DNA of 64,000 bases from Spizellomyces punctatus DAOM BR117 (lineage: Eukaryota): assembly GCA_000182565.2 (NCBI GenBank), contig KQ257465.1. One strand, given 5' to 3'. The position numbers and the translations under genes are program-made. Within the stretch, counting starts at the first letter, position 1, and each line of letters begins with the position of its first letter. Of the stretch, positions 13,404 through 24,478 are shown piece after piece. The notes below the pieces were generated by a model. That model was given only the letters and a program-made list of their open reading frames with translations, was not told the DNA's origin and ran no database searches.

Positions 13404-15233
13404 TCACAAACGAATCTCCCATCCAAGGTCAAATGCGGTTTCCAAAAAGCCGATATCTGCATTTGGCTCATCCAGATTCCGTTCTCTTACAATGGCAGAA
13501 CCCAAATTGGTAATGCCCTTGTCGGCATCCATAGTGGACATTGTGAACTGCTGAAAGACTTCCTCTTCGAAACTCATCGCATCAAAGTCGAGATCAATGG
13601 TTGCAATAGTCACTCTGGACATATGGCTAACGTAAGTCTCGATCGAATCTATAGAGTAGCGGGAGGGAGAGCTGGGAGATTCGGGTTCCTCAAGCGTAGC
13701 CGAGATCGGTAAATTATAAGATACTTCTGGTTCTAAAGGCTCCAATGCGGTTGTAAGATTGGGTTCGGATTGGAAATCCGTGCGTGGAATGAACTCATAT
13801 TTTGGCGTCGTCGGCAATGTCGGAGATCTGTCTTCAGAACGGGTCTTCCATTCGCCGCTTTCGACGGCAGTGGCAATGAAGAGGACATTTAATGCAGGTG
13901 TTGATGAGGGTTTAGCGCGTCGCAGAAGTGCAGTTTTCAGGAGACCTAATGATCGGCGTTTACGAGGCGCGATTGTAGACGGTTTGAATGAAACCGGGGG
14001 TGCAGGAGGGACGGGTTGCATATGATGTACTGCTCTGTTTGTATCTGCCGATTCGTTGGTTTTTGCTGATGGCTTGGGCGGGGTGTGTGTTTCAAGTCTG
14101 GTAAGGTCGGATATTGATGATCGGCGGGGAGGAGGGATGGGATGTTGGTTAGGGTCTGAGATTAGCGGTTTACTGCAGTCCTGGAGCATTGGTCGCTCTT
14201 GGTGAATTGGTTCTGATTCGCGTCCGTCTCCCTTATTCGGCTGCTCTTTTGGCAGGTTGCTCTGGTCTTCCTTGACTTCCTTCTGGAGAGTTGCAAGTCT
14301 CGATTTCTCCTGCAGTTCCATCTTCTCGATTAGTGTCATGCTAGGCTTGGGTCTCACCGCACTCATCGGTGCTGGCTTTGGTGGGGCATCTAAGCTGTCG
14401 TCAGATTCCAACGATGTAGAGACGATACGTAAAGAGCTCTTTTGTGCAGTCGGTGCTCTTCTCGCTCTGAGGGTTGGTGCGCTAGTAACTGCGACAGGTC
14501 GCGATGTTGATTGATGCGCTGGTGATGCGCCGGTGATCCGTGGGGGAGGCTGCGAAATAACAGGCTTTGGTCCAGATTGCGCAAAAGGTAGGTTCCCAAG
14601 TGGAATCTCGTCATCCTCATCTTCGTCAGGTTTTTTCTTAACAGTTCGCCCCGGATGAAGGATGCGTGGTGTCGACTGCTTTGCGTTTGGCAGTTGCTCG
14701 GTCTCTTCATCCGACGATGAATCGGAAGAGTATCCGCTATCTCGTGGATTGGCAGTTTTATCATCGGTTACAAGCTTCTTTGTGCGAATCAAAGCGCGTT
14801 TTGATATATCCGCCATCCGTGCAGACGAAGACCGCATCTTCCCTCGTCTGCCGATCCCGCCCAATCCCGCCAGCGCCCTGACCGGGCGCTCCGAGGCAAT
14901 GTCATCAAATACATTGCCTGCCGAGAGCACTTTGACAGGTCTGCCCATTAAACCACTCCACGTGCGATAAACCCTCTTTAGCAAATTTTGGATCAAAACT
15001 ACTCGGTGCATGTCGCAAGAAGCCCTGTGTCGCTCAGTTTGGAGCTTTCGATGTGATAGGTTGGCGAGAACGATAGGATCAATGGCAGGGCGAGCTCTTC
15101 GTCGCCGAGTGGGGGTGATGGAGTCATCGCTCCGTAGTCGTTCAGGTGGCGACGTTGACGACTTTGGCTTTGTTCTTTTACCTCTCGTGCTCGGAGAGAC
15201 TTTACGGTCTGCGAGGGCAAATAGACTAAGCAT
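13404..15233 (-). CDS. Large disordered Ser/Pro/Arg-rich protein with an N-terminal SERTA-like helical motif
   Basis: Intronless ~610-codon ORF; motif LANLSHRKLQTERHRASCDMHRVVLIQNLLKRV. Confidence 0.75.
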   Translation of the reverse strand: MLSLFALADRKVSPSTRGKRTKPKSSTSPPERLRSDDSITPTRRRRARPAIDPIVLANLSHRKLQTERHRASCDMHRVVLIQNLLKRVYRTWSGLMGRPVKVLSAGNVFDDIASERPVRALAGLGGIGRRGKMRSSSARMADISKRALIRTKKLVTDDKTANPRDSGYSSDSSSDEETEQLPNAKQSTPRILHPGRTVKKKPDEDEDDEIPLGNLPFAQSGPKPVISQPPPRITGASPAHQSTSRPVAVTSAPTLRARRAPTAQKSSLRIVSTSLESDDSLDAPPKPAPMSAVRPKPSMTLIEKMELQEKSRLATLQKEVKEDQSNLPKEQPNKGDGRESEPIHQERPMLQDCSKPLISDPNQHPIPPPRRSSISDLTRLETHTPPKPSAKTNESADTNRAVHHMQPVPPAPPVSFKPSTIAPRKRRSLGLLKTALLRRAKPSSTPALNVLFIATAVESGEWKTRSEDRSPTLPTTPKYEFIPRTDFQSEPNLTTALEPLEPEVSYNLPISATLEEPESPSSPSRYSIDSIETYVSHMSRVTIATIDLDFDAMSFEEEVFQQFTMSTMDADKGITNLGSAIVRERNLDEPNADIGFLETAFDLGWEIRL

Positions 15234-15722
15234 CGCTAACAGATAGTTTAGCTCTGTAAACAAATCAACTCGTTAGAGAAGAGGAAGCAAAAAGGACGAC
15301 GAAGATAAAAGCAAAATCCTGCAAATACCTGGTGCCTGGCCAGGAAGGCTAGCTGAGTCTGCCACAAAGAGCACAGAGGAATTAAATCGAAAGCTGCGAG
15401 GGGATTTTCATGCAGAATGACAAAAGTGGTTTGATCATTGAAATGCATTAGAATGTGCGATAGGGGTGAACGCCTCGTTTTCATCTCACATTTGTTGAAC
15501 ACTTTCGGAATCGACACGCACCAGTGACTTCAACAGGCAACATGAATTTCCCTTTTAAAAACTCTACACTTTCAAAAAGAACTGTGCGCAACGTGGGCTT
15601 GACAGCACGAAAGCCACTATCGGCGTATGAATATGCGGAATAATTAAAATGGCGCCAACTTAAATTGTTCAACGAAAACGATGAATTTTGTCTAAAACAG
15701 TGGTCATACACACGAGGGGACC

Positions 15723-16541
15723 CTATTTATCCTCGGGTTTGGACTGGACACGTTTGGCCAACTCGGCAAACGTTTTCCCTTGAATTTCCGCAACCTCTAG
15801 CTCAAGTTTCGACGGCTGTCGACTTCCATCACCTCCCGCAAGCGTTCCAGAACCCCAGGCACTTCCACCTCGTACCTCCGTCAAGCCAGTGAACTGCGAA
15901 AAAGTGTTGAAATACCCGAGTGGAACGTAAACCATACCGTGGTGAGCAAGTGTGGATATGAAATTAGCGGCCGTCATTTCTTGTCCGCCGCCCATACTGG
16001 CAGTCGAAAAAAAGACTCCGGCAAGCTTTTGATGAAGACTGCCCTTCACCCAAAGTTGGCCAGTCCGATCCCAGAAAGCGCGCACTTGGGCTGTCATTAT
16101 ATGGGTCATTAGAATGCTTTCCATGATCTGTTACAAAACCCGAGTAACGTACCAGATTGGTTGCCGTATCGAGTGGGCATACCGAACAGGAAAGCTTCAT
16201 ATTGTTCTAAGGTCTCCATGGTCGCCAGCGGGACGTTTGGATCCTGACCAGGTGCGTGCATTTTCTCCAATACATCCTTTGGCTGTGGGCGAACGTCAGT
16301 ATCTCGTTCTTGAGATCCGAACAACTTAGTCTAGTAAAGCGTCGTGTATACTCACCAAAGTTTCTGGGATTTGATACAAGTCGCCTTTCAAACCCACTGA
16401 TTCAACACCCTTTTTGATGGCGCGAGCCAACTGGCCAACATGTCCGTACATCGAGTAGTAGATAATGGCAACCTTTTAATGGCTGTGAGATCCAGGACAT
16501 TATTTATATCGGTTATCGAGAAACTTTACCTTTGAAACCAT
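15723..16541 (-). CDS. Flavodoxin-like NAD(P)H:quinone oxidoreductase (WrbA/Pst2 family), multi-exon
   Basis: [16 protein letters not shown]...[68 protein letters not shown]. Confidence 0.95.
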
Positions 16542-19470
16542 GGTGAGGAGCTGTCTGATCAATCTGAGAAACAAGATAGCGAGGCTGCTCATGCACAAGC
16601 CAGAGCTCTATTATATTCTCTTCCACTTTCCTGCCATGGTTTTGACTCTCACGTAACATGATATCATGCACGTTCACATTAAATGTGAGTGAGATCATTC
16701 GAACCGACAGGAAGGGATGACTTCAAATCCCCTAAAGAACTGACCAAATGCGCGGAGCAGTGCACAGTCGGCCAACATGGTCGAGTAAATGTACATTGGG
16801 AATGACATGGACGAGTTTAATGCCGTCATAATGTCCACATATCTACAGATGCGGGCTCTAAACTTCAGACGATCTTGGAGTTCGGATACGAGCACCTATG
16901 TCGCATTCACCCAGGTGCCATTGCACAATTTTGCGTTTTGACTCTTGGTTGTCTGCACCAGACTCGACAGCTGCTTGCGCCGACTGCCATATTGGTCGTC
17001 GATATTGTTGCCGCCCATATTTGCTAAGAGAGTAGAATATTCATAATCGCATGAAATATTGTCCAGATCGAGACTGTAGTTGTCCCCTCATCATATGCCT
17101 ACGGATATGCACTTTGATACCTAATGATGAATTGGTAACACCTAGCTTAATCCAATAGACGATCCACAACATTATGGCAACCAATCGCATGAAGCATTCT
17201 AACTCTCAGGCAGAGTGTCTCTTGCGCTCTACCTAATCATAGCGACGTCTATCGTCAAATCGGCTCAGCAATCGATATTTTTGCTGCACCAACACGGCTT
17301 CCACGATGCGTATGACGACCCTACACGATGAATCCAAGACTAAGGCACTATGGAACGAACCAATGCACTTGTACCGTAAAATCATTTATGTACTGTATCA
17401 TAGTACTACATAGGCGATGAGTTAGCGCATGTACAACCCAGTCTGGAAATCGTTGTCAGTGTCGTTCCCAGTTAAAATCTGAAATTAGAGTGGATCCTGT
17501 GCTGTGCTTCTTGGACGGGTTATTTAAACACATGAAGCGTATTATCATCATTCAGGTACTTGGTTCAAACAACATGCACGATGCGACCGGGCTGTTGGAG
17601 GCGGCGGATGAGGGAGTATCCTCTCGCATTGATATAGCATTCAAAACCAAAAAGTCGGGTATGATGACCCGTCGACAATCCTGTTTACAGCACGGATTCC
17701 CAGGGCATGCAAACAAGGATGTCGATAGATGATTTGGATATATTCACATCGCCCTCATCAAACAGCAACATGCCTGAAATACATTGGCGCGACGTGAGGA
17801 AACAGGGAATAACGTGGGCACGTTGCCCATTGAACAGCGAGTCACAAACCGACTGTGTTCGTTGCGTCTGTCGACCATCCTCTCGCACGAACCGCAGATT
17901 CATTACTCAATTCTCCCACGTGGTCCCATCTGTCTTCACTCAGAGTACCAAATTTTGAGATACCAAATGTTTGTTTCACACTCTATTTGTTAGAGTCCCA
18001 CCAGGGTTATGGAAAACAATATTAAAAAGTATTTGATATCGATAAAGGCAATTCAGAGGGAATCTCTGGGATCTCATTTCATCCAACGTTCACCCAGTAT
18101 GGTTCTCTTCTGACTAGTGGGGCTTCTGTGGCAGTTAGCAACGAGTCTCTCTATCATCCTCTTCCTACGATGTGTGAGCAGTGCCGTTGTTGAAACCCTG
18201 ACTGCTGATCATGGGGCCCATGGCCGTAGATTATCGTACGACAAAAGTTGTGCCGAAAATTCTCATCATGACTCGGATCTTGACAGATCATACCCATCTT
18301 CGAATTGCATTGCTGTTGGCAACACATCCGCATTCTGTATGTCCGTGATTGAGGTTGTCCGTGCTCGCCCACTACCTCGTCTGCATCACCATAATGACTT
18401 TCCGCTCTCACGCACAGCTCTTGTTTTTGCCTCAAGATGTTGCGAGGTCAAGGAATATACGGATCCATAAATACCCGAACTGTGTGTTTCAAAAGCACAA
18501 TTTTCACTGTCGACGAATGAACTTTCGACGAATGACACAAAGGTGGACTATGCTTACGTAAATGATCGGATTATGTAAGGAGCTACAGCTCTACTGGGGA
18601 CCGAAACAACGGCGTATGTGTGCCTTGAATAATTCAGTGTAAAGCTTTACGATGAGGGACCTCAAGAATTATACTAGATCAGCCAGAAACACAGCAAACT
18701 TCATTTAATCTAATTGTTTATCACTAGATTCTCTGGATGAATGAAGTAAATGCCGTTACCGTACGGGCGCGAAGGCCCTCTTCTCTGTTCATCGAGCCAC
18801 ACATCTTCGTGTCTACGGTCGCTGTTTAGTGGATTCTGGGCATCAATATTGCATCCAAAATGTCAAGGAGCAGGCAACGCCTCGGTATTGTCGTCGCTAA
18901 ATTATCGAAGTTCATGGCGCGCCAAAGATCCATTATTGCCGTCGCTCTCCCTCAAATCTCTAAGCAGGGCAACCTAATCGACACATATTCTTGGCATATT
19001 GCGAAATTGTCAGTACTCAGGTAGTGTTGTCGTCCACAGTTGCTTTAGAGCAATTCTGCGAACGCCCAAGAAGCCCGAAAACCTTGCATACATTACAAAA
19101 TAACCTTAAACATGATGATTTAGCTTGACACGGCCGTATTGCATGACACAGACGACCACCACAGGATGTTATAACGTAACTGTCTCTGTGAGGAAGAGGA
19201 CTTTTGTATTTTGCACGAAGGAAAGATCTGGTCTTCGTCCTATGATGCTAACTAACAGTATGCACTTCAGTACTTGACACGTCTCCTAGTTAATACAATG
19301 TCTTGACACCAGCTTGGCCAATTCTGGTACAAGTAGTGAAAGGTATACAGCGATGATACAAAAAAGAAATCTACATATAGAACAAAATCTCACATCTATA
19401 ACATCTACAAGCAAATCCGCGTCGGTGATAAAGGAGATATTCAACCCACACCCCGCAAATCCCTTGCTAT

Positions 19471-20910
19471 CTACATTTCCCCTCTCCATTTTGGGGTCAA
19501 ATGTTCCCTGACCACCTCTACTTTTTGTTTTGATACACCGTCCCCCGTGTAGCGATAGATGTAATTCACGAGGAGTACAGCGGCTAAGGTTAGACAGTCA
19601 GTAAAAAGGCGGGCTACCGGTGCGAAATCTCCGACGTAGAAGCAGATAAGTACCTGCAATTGCTACAAGCACCATGTTCCAGAAAAACCCAACGACGTCC
19701 ACGGTCGTTCCAATAGGAGGTGCGAGAGGCTGGCTATTGCGGATTGATGGAAGAGCGAATCTATGGCACGAAAGGTGAGCGTTTATATCCCAAGCCATGA
19801 ATACGCAATCGCTCGAATACTTACAACATGGAAATCGACACAGCAATTGTGGGCGGTTCCACTTTTCTTCCACGCACCCACACGCTCACCGCAAGAGTTA
19901 TCATCAAGAGTGACAACACCCACATGAATATCGTCAAAAGTACGACAAACACCTTTGTCGTGTGTGCACGCTTGATAACACTAGTGACTAGGATTAACGT
20001 TGCGTCAGATTTGGAGCTGGTATCGCAAACTTGGGGAAAGACGACATTATAAGCTGCGAGAGGGGCGTTGGCCTGAAGGTGCATAGCGGTTAGAAGACAG
20101 AAACATCAGCAAGATTGGGAAGACACGTACAAAGACAACAAGGGACACTGGCGAATCCACTCTGGAGGTGACATTTCGAAAGGTACCCGTCATCAGAAAG
20201 AGGTTCTGCCACTTGTCAAACGGGTATCTGTTGATGTCGCCAGTGATCGAGAAAGACGAATCTTGGGGTTGCATGGTGTCACCCGCTTTGAACCGGAAGG
20301 TTATGCTACCTGCAATATCAGTATCAGAATTAGTCCTCGTCCAAGTTTGATGCACAAAAAGGAGTTACGAACCGACGGTGATGTTGAGATCAGATCGGAG
20401 CTTGCGGTTTACCAATGACTCAAGGTCATCTCCACCACCCACAGGTTGGTCAGCCAAATCACCTTGCCAAGAGAGTGATGTGAGCCACATCTTCCTTATG
20501 AATTCCGCAAACATTCCAGGTACCTCTGGGTGTAAATTCAAAATGCAGTCTAAATGAGGAGCTTCCTGGATCGACACTCGTCACCGACATTTCAATCTCA
20601 ACCAACGTTGGTACATTCTGGAACCTCGTGCCATTGACGATGCCGCTTTGAGCGGAAAGAGGTATGTTGTAAGGGAAGGTGAAGTTGGGATCGGTAACGT
20701 TGCAAGGACCGAATGCTGTTACGTCAAGCTTGCGGTCGCCCTAGTTTGAAGAACTGAGCTTGAGCGCAGTAACACTTACAGCACACTATAAGGACTCACA
20801 GATTCTTTATTCTGCAAGCCGGCCCATAAGACGACACCAAACAAAAGTCCAAAGCCTAGGACAGCTCCAATAAAGACTTTTAGCCTTTTTGGCGTTAATC
20901 CACACAGCAT
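19471..20910 (-). CDS. DUF4436-family membrane protein, multi-exon
   Basis: N-terminal TM; GDINRYPFDKW; IKRAHTTKVFVVLLTIFMWVLS; LFALPSIRNSQPLAPPIGTTVDVVGFFWNM; TATAAAA on the minus strand at ~20957-20963. Confidence 0.82.
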
Positions 20911-22943
20911 CTCTGTCGTATGGACCAACGACAAATAGCTACTGGAGTGGAAAATATTTTATAGGTCTCGGCTTTCTACTTGCAAGTCCTTGAGCTGTAC
21001 CGCTCTGGTTGCGTAAACCTGTAGATGTTACACGCTGTAACCAAAGTGTTCCAGAAAGGAATTCCTGTTGATCAAGAGGAACGTGCAGCTTATGTTGTTT
21101 TTGGCATTTTATTAGTTTGCCGTCCCTCCCCAAACAGCGTTTCGAAGGGGGGGCCGGCCATCCAATAATTGAGAATGGCTTTAGGCCCATGCTCAGAAAC
21201 ATCGACTGCGCACAAGATTGGGGACCCCCTCTTCTTCCGTGCAGGGGGTGGATGATCGAGAATGGCAGGGCCTTTGAACCAACGTTTGTCGTTTAGCGCT
21301 GCCCTCGCCCAACGCACCCAACCAGCCACAGTCTCTCCCCTCCGGTTTGCTCCGGATTCCTGTTTCCTTTGGCGGCGGCCTACACGGTGCTTTTATTTTG
21401 TGTGCGAGTTCCCCTGTCCATGTTCTGCTACAATCTCTCCTATTTCTATTCGCCACTTTTGGTCCGCAAAATGCCAAAATCGGTTAAAGAGGGGCCGCCG
21501 CTGTGCCAAAATTGCTCTTTCCAAAAATGGCTTTTTTCTGCCGCCAGTTGAGCCGCTCTCCCGCTTATAAAAGGAGGGCCTCTTTTGGCTTTCCCCCCCT
21601 CTTTACTTTTCATCCCGCCAACACTCGGCTGGTTGGAGCAGAATGAATATTGGGTATGAGGTCATATCAAATCTTAGTCTGGGGCCCACTGCTGTTTATC
21701 GCCTGAATGACCCACACAAAGATTTGGTGTGTTCCTCACTCCCGCTTGATCATTCTTGTATTGAATAGAGCTCATGTCCACATTTGCAAGCCATATGATG
21801 TTGTTTGTCATTTCGTAAAATGTTACTAGTTTTGCAGAAACCCTGAGAGTTGCCATTGTTTGTGTACGCACCAGCCTCCAACTGTGGGGCGAAGAAGAGA
21901 AAAGGCGCGACGTACCATCGCGAACTTCATTTGCACCGCTCAGAGTCGATGCCAATTCGATTCCTACCAATCTTCTACTGGCCTGATGAATTGGTGATCA
22001 AGAAAAGAGACGGAAGGCCTGCTTGATCAAGTGTGAAAGGACCGAATATCCACGCTCCCCTTGCCAACTGGCATGCGGTAAGTTTCCCGCAAAGAGACGG
22101 CCCGTCGTGTTGCGACGACCTGCTAACCCGAAGAAACATAGCAACCCTTTCTCATTACGCAGCGCTTGGTAAACGTTAATTACTCCCGTCGTCATCGGGA
22201 TGTATCATAATTGGTCAAATGCCGTACCTCAAACGCTCCACATTGGCCATCAAATGGTTGAGCATCCTTGCTGCACGCTCGGGTGCCAAGTAATGACAAG
22301 GTCTTCATGGCGCCGCCCCCAGTCGAGAAGCTTAATGTTGCCTTGGTTGAAAAATTTAGGATATGCCATGTACTAAGCCATCTCGCGTTGAAACGGCTTT
22401 CCTCTCCATAGACAAAATTGTACAAAATACAAAATTCCTTTTCTTGACCGCAGACAAAGATACACGATCACCAGCGAATCCAACGTGTTTCACATGCGGT
22501 TGCTTATATCCAGCTTGCTAAAAACCATGTGTTCCTATCACCGTGGCGCCCTTCGAAACTTGCTTTGGGGGTTCAACGCTTGCTTTACGGGTTCAATAGG
22601 ACCCCTACTTGCCATTTGCTCGGTGTATTGGATGAACGGCCTTGCAAAAAAAAATGTTCATCTTGAGCTCTTTTCAGTGTGGAGTTCAACATGCCTCAAA
22701 TTACGCAAGGGTCCGAGATGGTTTCGGGGTCTTAAAGTTGCTTTTCAGGGTGTAAGGTTGCGCGGCGTTCGGAAGAGTGTTGGAAAGGCATAAAAAGCAA
22801 GATCTTGTGCAGATCCTTTCTCTTTCTCCATCACACACAAAAGCAGCAATCGGACAATTGTAGAATATCTTTTGTGATTGTAGACTCCTTCCCTTCCTTA
22901 GATACTTAGACCTGTGTCTTTTACCTCCTCAAGAGCTTTCACG

Positions 22944-24478
22944 ATGAAGTTTATCGTTACAGCTCTCGTCCTTTCGTTGGTTGGTACCTCCGTAGCCGAT
23001 ACTCGACTGAACCGAAGGCGATTCGGACAACAGAACCCACCTGTGGAAGGAAAGATTGGACAGGTGAGTTTGTCCGTGCAATGGCTGTGCCACATACGCG
23101 TTCAGCAACTGACTTGCCATCACGTTAGCTTCAAGCCCTAAAGAATGGTCTGGCTGGTACTCTCTCTGGACAAGTTCCCTCCACGCTTCTCGGTGCCGCG
23201 GACCCATGTGCTAAACTCCAACTGGCCGACACCATCGTCCAAGCCGCTCCTGGTGACGCAGCTACTCTGGCAGCCGCAAGGGAACTCGTCAACGCCGAAC
23301 AAAACTTTAACCCCGCCAACAACGGCAAACCCAAGTTCTGTGGAAACCCCAATCTCCCTGCTACAAAAGAACTGCGAGGAATCCTCCCCAAGATTTCGGA
23401 AGTGGACAACCTCCAGGGTGCAGCGGCGTTCAATCAGATATCGTCCAAAAGTCTGGCGGATGCCCTTGCCGGCAATGTAAAGAATGTCGATGGCAAGAGT
23501 GTAGCAGATCAGATTGTCGAGGCTGGCTTTACGGACTTTGCGGGCGCCCCTGTTGCTGGAAACAACAATAACGGTAACCAGAACAACCAGAATAATACAA
23601 ACAACGGGAACAACCAGAACAAGACAAACAACGGTAACCAGAACAACCAGAACAAGACAAACAACGGCAACCAGAACAACCAGAACAAGAACAACGGCAA
23701 CCAGAACAACCAGAACAAGAACAACCAAAACAACGGGAATAACCAGAACAACCAGAACAAGAACAACCAACACAACAACAACAACCAGAACAATCGGAAC
23801 AATGGGAACAACAACGTCGTTACAGTTACGCAGACCGTTACCCGCACCGTAGTCGTCTGCCCCACAAACGTTGCTGGTAACAACAACAACAACAACCAGC
23901 ACAACAACAACAACCAGAATAACCGGAACAACCAGAACAACCAGAACAAAAACAACCAAAACAACGGGAACAACCAGAACAAGAACAACCAGACCAACAA
24001 CGAGAACAACCAGAACAAATACAATCAAAACAACGGGAACAACAACAACCAGAACAAGAACAACCAAAACAACGGGAACAACAACAACCAGAACAAGAAC
24101 AACCAAAACAACGGGAACAACAACAACCAGAACAAGAACAACCAAAACAACGGCAACAACAACAACCAGAACAACCAGAACAAAAACAACCAAAACAACA
24201 ATGGAAATAACGGGAATGTGATTTTCCAACCCAAGTCGGTGGAGGGCCTCAACTTTGACCCCCTTGTACTCTCTAACGATCCCAACCGCCGCTTCCAAGT
24301 TGCGGGTGATACCTTTGTTGGGGCTGGAGCTGCTTGCGGGCGTGTCGGAGACCGTCTTTTCAACAGCTGTGCAAACAAATTGAATGCTGAAGGCCGTGGC
24401 AACGAGTTGGGAACAGTTTGTGCGCCTGCGCGGGACGCCGCCAAGACCGATTGTGCTGCTGCTGCCGCCAATGTGTAG
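22944..24478 (+). CDS. Secreted protein (~489 aa) with Cys-containing terminal domains and a long Asn/Gln-rich linker; exons 22944-23063 and 23129-24478
   Basis: Signal peptide MKFIVTALVLSLVGTSVA; RRRFGQ; LLGAADPCAKLQLAD; FCGNPNLP; C-terminal RFQVAGDTFVGAGAACGR...FNSCAN. Confidence 0.88.
23561..24216 (+). repeat. Coding AAC/CAG-rich imperfect tandem repeat (NNQNKNNQNNGNN)
   Basis: aacaaccagaacaag units repeated; interrupted by VVTVTQTVTRTVVVCPT. Confidence 0.95.

Follow-up and report, generated by a model that had tools for sequence, protein, structure and literature searches.

Does a fungus carry a relative of the pentameric ion channels gated by ligands (pLGICs), a superfamily regarded as absent from that kingdom? 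The question is raised by a gene in a 64,000-nucleotide stretch of contig KQ257465.1 of the chytrid Spizellomyces punctatus DAOM BR117 (this whole stretch being referred to below as the window), the product of which belongs to the unstudied family DUF4436. The definition of the superfamily employed here is that of Jaiteh et al. (2016, PMC4795631), whose Table 1 gives seven superfamily-conserved positions derived from 561 pLGICs; the same paper reports that pLGICs were not detected in fungi or multicellular plants. Our literature search returned no description linking DUF4436 to pLGICs, the family name being met only as a table label.

Gene structure and product

The gene lies on the minus strand, with its ATG at 20910 and its stop codon at 19471-19473, and comprises seven exons encoding a protein of 354 amino acids (Table 1). 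In the splice model all six introns are of the GT..AG type and are 58-70 nt long. This model was built through six-frame reading and enumeration of GT/AG pairs, the acceptor of intron 2 being set by the orthologue from Spizellomyces 'palustris' (P0001). The spliced product is identical over 354/354 residues to SPPG_07500 of S. punctatus DAOM BR117 (P0187) and shares 336 of its 354 residues with P0001. The Pfam model for DUF4436 (PF14494) matches P0187 over residues 79-324 with 96.8 bits (E 1.7e-27; cut-off 23.2 bits), and single exon pieces reach at most 34.2 bits with the same model, the exon 6 piece alone giving an E value of 2.2e-8. A paralogue, SPPG_08196, is present elsewhere in the genome; within the window a second copy of the gene was looked for and none was found.

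The preliminary description of this DNA had placed the gene at 19471-20910, and the strings that it quoted all occur in the translation, in the order that it gave. Its view of an intron-bearing gene residing in a fungus agrees with the six GT..AG introns and with the identity of the product to a chytrid protein.

Table 1. Features of the SPPG_07500 locus, in coordinates of the window.
Feature	Position	Strand	Basis
Complete coding sequence of SPPG_07500 from ATG to stop codon (7 exons, 6 introns)	19471..20910	-	Splice model, identity to P0187, PF14494 match
Exon 1: residues 1-37, comprising a basic N-terminus (K8, R9, K11) and the greater part of the N-terminal membrane helix	20800..20910	-	
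Exon 2: end of N-terminal helix, linker 43-79, β1-β2 hairpin (D94 at the tip)	20524..20740	-	
Exon 3: outer-domain loop and short helix, residues about 110-139	20373..20462	-	Acceptor via P0001; AlphaFold2 secondary structure
Exon 4: central β-sandwich strands including the Pro loop	20131..20309	-	
Pro-loop equivalent G163-D-I-N-R-Y168-P169-F170-D171	20215..20241	-	Conservation and hhalign alignment onto FPFD of pLGICs
Exon 5: strands β8-β10, pre-M1 Arg, M1, M1-M2 loop, first half of M2	19825..20072	-	
R234 codon (pre-M1 arginine, end of last strand)	19968..19970	-	R in 110/110 filled rows
M1 helix (236-265), lacking the proline of pLGIC M1	19875..19964	-	W250 98%
Exon 6: latter half of M2 (LFALPSIRN), M2-M3 loop, start of M3 with D303	19654..19760	-	Most conserved stretch of the family
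M2-M3 loop SQPLAPPIGT	19706-19735	-	Within exon 6
Exon 7: remainder of M3 (up to residue 331), 23-residue C-terminal tail, stop; no fourth helix	19471..19583	-	

Conserved residues of the family

Across an alignment of 111 DUF4436 members a single column, that of P169, is invariant. Around it, the Pro loop retains G163 in 92% of members, Y168 in 96% (with Phe in a further 3%), F170 in 82% and D171 in 93% (Glu in 6%). Elsewhere in the outer domain, D94 at the β1-β2 tip is kept in 86%, and position 207 in β9 is aromatic in 92% (Phe 44%, Trp 27%, Tyr 21%). R234, which ends the last strand two residues before M1, is Arg wherever the column is filled (110/110). In M1, W250 is conserved at 98%, and a proline occurs anywhere in the M1 columns in only 12 of 111 rows, P0001 and P0187 having none. 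E271, in the M1-M2 loop at the cytoplasmic start of M2, is present in 78% (Asp in a further 7%). The inner half of M2 carries small or polar residues (Ala/Gly/Ser at 276, Ser/Thr/Ala at 278, Ala/Ser/Gly at 280), and its outer half is strongly conserved (L282 89%, F283 97%, A284 94%, P286 87%, R289 100%, N290 83%), as are the M2-M3 loop and M3 (P293 99%, P296 97%, G299 100%, D303 100%, W309 90%).

These column counts place the conserved residues in a cluster at the junction of the outer domain and the membrane helices. In 106 of the 111 members an apolar window is found among the N-terminal 80 residues, and the architecture and motifs are common to all of them. As judged from the aligned sequences, conservation of the motifs exceeds chance.

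Comparison with the published definition of pLGICs

According to Table 1 of Jaiteh et al. (PMC4795631), the tip of the β6-β7 loop in pLGICs bears [F/Y]PxD, its Pro being absolutely conserved, and the superfamily frequencies are 94% for the pre-M1 Arg, 77% for the M1 Pro, 88% for the Pro of the M2-M3 loop and, in β9, 71% for Trp, 16% for Phe and 11% for Tyr. Six of the seven superfamily-conserved positions are present in DUF4436 at strikingly similar frequencies, the M1 proline being the one that is missing. Among the features that mark pLGICs, DUF4436 has [F/Y]PxD with an invariant Pro, the pre-M1 Arg, the β9 aromatic residue and the M2-M3 Pro; it lacks the M1 proline, a match to PF02931 or PF02932, and the four helices M1-M4 with the C-terminus outside. 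After the outer domain come just three helices, the protein ending 23 residues past M3, and the additional helix is N-terminal.

The prokaryotic pLGICs (GLIC, ELIC, sTeLIC and DeCLIC) differ from DUF4436 in having an M4 after M3 and a proline in M1, in consisting of PF02931 plus PF02932, neither of which DUF4436 matches, and in starting with a signal peptide where DUF4436 has an uncleaved membrane helix. Their outer domain is of about 190-200 residues, compared to about 155 in DUF4436, in which loop C is very short and M2 has 19 residues. The eukaryotic Cys-loop receptors (GABA-A, glycine, ZAC and nicotinic) share 10-17% sequence identity with DUF4436 and, unlike it, possess the disulfide-forming cysteines of the Cys loop, a cytoplasmic M3-M4 domain and M4.

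Predicted fold and topology

AlphaFold2, run on P0001 with the family alignment, gave a confident model (pLDDT 87.0, pTM 0.81) composed of a helix at 7-42, a disordered segment at 43-78, strands between 82 and 234, and helices at 236-265, 272-290 and 301-331. The strands include a hairpin (E82-94/E99-110; VEIEMSVTSVDPGSS...) and a final strand, 225-234, that ends in IKR; between them, loop 161-171 carries YPFD. The order of secondary structure that the preliminary description had read from the letters is reproduced in this model. The N-terminal helix is modelled with pLDDT 91-95 for residues 11-40. The outer β-sandwich is compact, with about 155 residues (80-234) and a loop C of about 8 residues, and is followed by an M2 of 19 residues. 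The linker 43-79 is poorly ordered and contains three N-x-S/T sequons; there are five sequons in all, each within residues 51-185. Because the N-terminus is basic, a loop reads RGRK and the sequons are confined to 51-185, we infer a topology, predicted from these sequence features, in which both termini lie inside and the outer domain outside.

Structural similarity was assessed through a Foldseek search of the P0001 model against the PDB, which yielded at least 500 matches at E≤1e-3. Of the 50 listed, 49 bear the name of a pLGIC subunit, and the title of the remaining one is unclear. The E value was 1.2e-8 at best, with about 300 columns aligned at 13-17% identity and TM-scores of 0.32-0.40, all below 0.5. 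Two DUF4436 members that are only 27% identical to each other gave the same result, their two-domain fold matches being exclusively to pLGICs. Comparison of an AlphaFold monomer by Foldseek had been proposed in the preliminary description. In the model the β-sandwich leads straight into a helical membrane domain and is superposable on solved pLGIC subunits. Three copies of residues 5-336, predicted together with the alignment unused and with no controls, gave a self-association score of 0.18 compared to a mark of 0.32, a value that counts neither for nor against assembly.

Sequence-profile comparison with pLGICs

Conventional sequence searches do not connect the two families. PDB sequences, searched with single sequences and with profiles, returned no pLGIC at E≤10, the few matches being a designed coiled coil, a sliding clamp and a clumping factor. 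P0001 has no match at E≤10 to PF02931 (Neur_chan_LBD) or PF02932 (Neur_chan_memb), and neither model is among the 25 families most often matched by the 111 members, where only DUF4436 is consistent.

Profile-to-profile alignment was carried out with hhalign against a reference set of 17 acidobacterial pLGICs taken from genomes (alignment A3), PF02931 being confirmed in 17/17 and PF02932 in 15/17. The alignment extends over 126 columns with a score of 39.8, a probability of 52% and an E value of 1.4e-4. For comparison, the reversed template scored 19.1 (P 0.11) and 30 column shuffles at most 19.9 (P 0.088); the real score is twice the best of these 31 controls. In the resulting register GDxNxYPFD falls on LDLxxFPFD, aromatic residue 207 on the invariant β9 Trp, and R234 on the pre-M1 Arg; M1 then aligns with M1, with a six-residue gap at the 'PL' of pLGICs, and M2 with M2, P293 lying one column off the M2-M3 proline. 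This is the register that had been predicted from the letters. Greedy extension of the alignment, of low confidence, brings D94 onto an Asp of the β1-β2 loop and D303 onto an Asp at the start of M3. L282 would correspond to 9' and R289 to the pore-facing 16', in a prime numbering that we take over from ELIC and GLIC.

Interpretation and a possible mechanism

We consider it probable that DUF4436 proteins are remote homologues of pLGICs. The reading of the preliminary description, a divergent Cys-less relative that has a helix at the N-terminus and no M4 at the C-terminus, is strengthened as regards relatedness by the fold searches with two members, by the controlled hhalign alignment and by the six of seven conserved positions; this support does not extend to the chemosensory role that it had also raised, which is speculation because loop C has only some 8 residues and conservation in the rest of the outer domain is poor. 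With no M1 proline, no M4, an added N-terminal helix and failure of the Pfam models, the family is to be regarded as a separate, remotely homologous branch and not as a canonical member of the superfamily.

The mechanism that we favour, and hold to be somewhat likely, has SPPG_07500 as one subunit of a DUF4436 membrane protein remotely homologous to Pro-loop receptor subunits. Subunits would stand side by side, probably as a pentamer, with their M2 helices lining a central pore. A signal from the outer domain would reach M2 through a cluster at the domain interface made up of the Pro loop (Y168/P169/D171), R234, the outer half of M2 with R289, and the M2-M3 loop (P293, P296, G299, D303); nowhere is the family more conserved than in this cluster. 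E271, where M2 begins on the cytoplasmic side, could form an acidic ring of the cation type, and L282 would be the 9' leucine; by analogy, both would resemble cation-selective pLGICs. The N-terminal helix may sit at the M4 site on the lipid-facing rim. Replacement of M4 in this manner is compatible with the model, in which the helix would run from inside to outside, as M4 does, with pLDDT above 90. Channel function as such we put at slightly under an even chance, and the literature on M4 deletion consulted contains no passage settling whether a three-helix pLGIC conducts.

A bolder version of the same mechanism, which we think rather unlikely, is that DUF4436 represents a hitherto unrecognised, circularly permuted branch of Pro-loop receptors, the fourth helix having moved from the C- to the N-terminus, and forms gated pentameric channels. 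If this were so, fungi (chytrids, Mucoromycota, Basidiomycota and Ascomycota), oomycetes and green algae would own receptors of the pLGIC type, and the several paralogues could be fast environment sensors in the motile zoospores of chytrids. Should DUF4436 be a divergent branch of pLGICs, whether permuted or not, the range of the superfamily would grow to include fungi and further algae, and nature would have provided an experiment on the roles of M4 and the M1 proline, with a minimal three-helix pore domain. The family would also supply candidate receptor genes for chytrids, whose zoospores swim and sense.

The foremost alternative, which we regard as improbable though deserving of weight, accepts the remote homology and supposes that the protein is no channel: it might be a signalling receptor, a sensor bound to a partner or a membrane factor concerned with lipids or the cell wall, and perhaps not pentameric. 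Loss of M4 and of the M1 proline, the short M2 and the very short loop C all fit such a role. Moreover, the conserved M2 residues 281-290 are contiguous and not periodic, a pattern that suits tight packing more than a pore face alone, and in the hhalign register the invariant R289 would be at the pore-facing 16' in our own mapping. On the other hand, the positions that are kept, taken from the published table, are exactly those coupling binding to gating in pLGICs, the inner part of M2 is small and polar (276, 278, 280) with the acidic E271 at its cytoplasmic end, as in channel pores, and two acidobacterial loci are without common partner genes.

Convergence is harder to maintain. On this explanation DUF4436 would be an unrelated family of β-sandwich plus three helices in which the YPFD and arginine matches are coincidental, and it could draw on the empty HMM-to-sequence searches, on the hhalign probability of 52%, on TM-scores below 0.5, and on our own estimate that a bare [FY]PxD is expected by chance in roughly one in 15 proteins of this length. 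However, coincidence would have to produce six conserved positions in the same structural places and order, with conservation close to that in the published table and including the single invariant proline, as well as a profile score twice the best of 31 controls and the same exclusive two-domain matches for two members at 27% identity. We judge it quite doubtful and retain remote homology.

Distribution and origin of the gene

A scan of 1.84 billion cluster representatives gave 1391 DUF4436 relatives at E≤1e-3, of which 60 reached E≤1e-30. A word-indexed search gave 43 matches, every one already annotated as PF14494, and the 12 with a named organism are all chytrids by name. Orthologues are found in Gaertneriomyces and Phlyctochytrium, and further named relatives come from Batrachochytrium, Rhizophlyctis, Quaeritorhiza, Blyttiomyces, Phycomyces and the green alga Edaphochlamys. 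Of four clusters shown in a protein atlas, three are 80-96% eukaryotic and one is 100% Bacteria; atlas clusters include some dominated by Chytridiomycota and by Basidiomycota and one named for an oomycete.

On the bacterial side, metagenomic matches at 25-28% identity are Acidobacteriota MAGs (Blastocatellia/Pyrinomonadaceae; loci L001-L010). Five of 301 sampled Acidobacteriota genomes contain DUF4436 and 16 contain a true pLGIC. Both occur together in two of the four DUF4436-bearing Blastocatellia genomes tested (L011, L012), where the pLGIC genes match PF02931 at 57 and 55.8 bits; DUF4436 and pLGICs are therefore separate, coexisting genes.

The phylogeny with bacterial DUF4436 that had been suggested as a check was computed with FastTree on 110 rows. 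A branch with 100% local support divides the 17 labelled chytrid rows from the 8 labelled acidobacterial rows, and SPPG_07500 falls with its paralogue in an all-chytrid clade (local support 98%); the other 85 rows are unlabelled, several branches of the tree are long, and it bears on the chytrid/acidobacterial separation only. From this tree and from the wealth of chytrid and other eukaryotic relatives, SPPG_07500 is a resident, diversified fungal gene. The same evidence leaves unsupported the earlier characterisation of DUF4436 as mainly bacterial, a view at odds with 12/12 named matches from chytrids, 3/4 of the atlas clusters shown at 80-96% eukaryotic, and only 5/301 Acidobacteriota. Recent acquisition from bacteria, or contamination of the assembly, could appeal to the bacterial members (loci L001-L010 and the wholly bacterial atlas cluster) but is extremely improbable in view of the six introns of spliceosomal GT..AG type, the annotation of the product on a 579-kb S. 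punctatus contig, the paralogue SPPG_08196, the orthologues in Gaertneriomyces and Phlyctochytrium and, with 85/110 rows unlabelled, the 100% split of labelled rows and the all-chytrid clade at 98%. Within DUF4436, SPPG_07500 is a eukaryotic, intron-bearing member of a chytrid-specific set of paralogues.

Some variation within the family may be recorded. Acidobacterial DUF4436 proteins (L002:5995-6990; alignment A2, columns about 147-205) have an insertion of ~55 residues in the outer domain, rich in Lys, Glu, Ala and Pro, which is of low complexity and comes out disordered in the model (pLDDT 54-60); the chytrid protein lacks it. Shared neighbour genes or a functional hint were sought at acidobacterial loci L002 and L007, and none was found. 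Certain long DUF4436 proteins (P0183, P0077, P0060, P0045) bear an additional F-box with FBO_C (Phycomyces), p25-alpha or DUF5092, or contain two stretches of DUF4436; they may have arisen by the merging of gene models and not be real fusions, and their extra domains, considered as a functional clue, gave no lead. The label 'metal-dependent hydrolase', set beside DUF4436 in a single table row for Aspergillus flavus, was likewise discarded, nothing in the present data supporting it.

Transcription and neighbouring features

Raw RNA reads bearing the same species label (run X10, 6% of which was read) placed 178 reads. Depth is 19-46 over 19350-19577, comprising the last exon and 3' flank, 0.63 in the bin holding intron 6, 3.2-3.5 over exon 6 and, in the 6% read, 0 over 19749-20147. 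No splice joint appeared in the X10 reads at the listing threshold. Transcription of SPPG_07500 is thus indicated, with partial support from the 3' end and no reads over the middle exons in the 6% covered, and the splicing stays a prediction from the sequence. Runs X4-X6 were rejected as RNA evidence, consisting of genomic contigs that read through the introns. At 20148-21050 reads of low depth (0.25-3.4) have their first mate on the plus strand, opposite to the reads at the 3' end of the gene, and may reflect an antisense or neighbouring transcript or a property of the library.

Neighbouring ORFs of the window gave nothing above the Pfam cut-offs. On the plus strand, 23129-24478 is an ORF of 449 codons with a long Asn/Gln-rich repeat (NNQNN-type) in the middle of the frame and ordinary, cysteine-bearing flanks, and with no Pfam match. 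On the minus strand, 13404-15272 is an unbroken ORF of 622 codons, rich in Ser, Pro and basic residues, also without a Pfam match. The minus-strand ORF piece at 15723-16130, which resembles PF03358 (NADPH-dependent FMN reductase; E 9e-4, 19.3 bits, below the cut-off of 24), is probably, on this sequence match, an exon of a flavodoxin-like gene.
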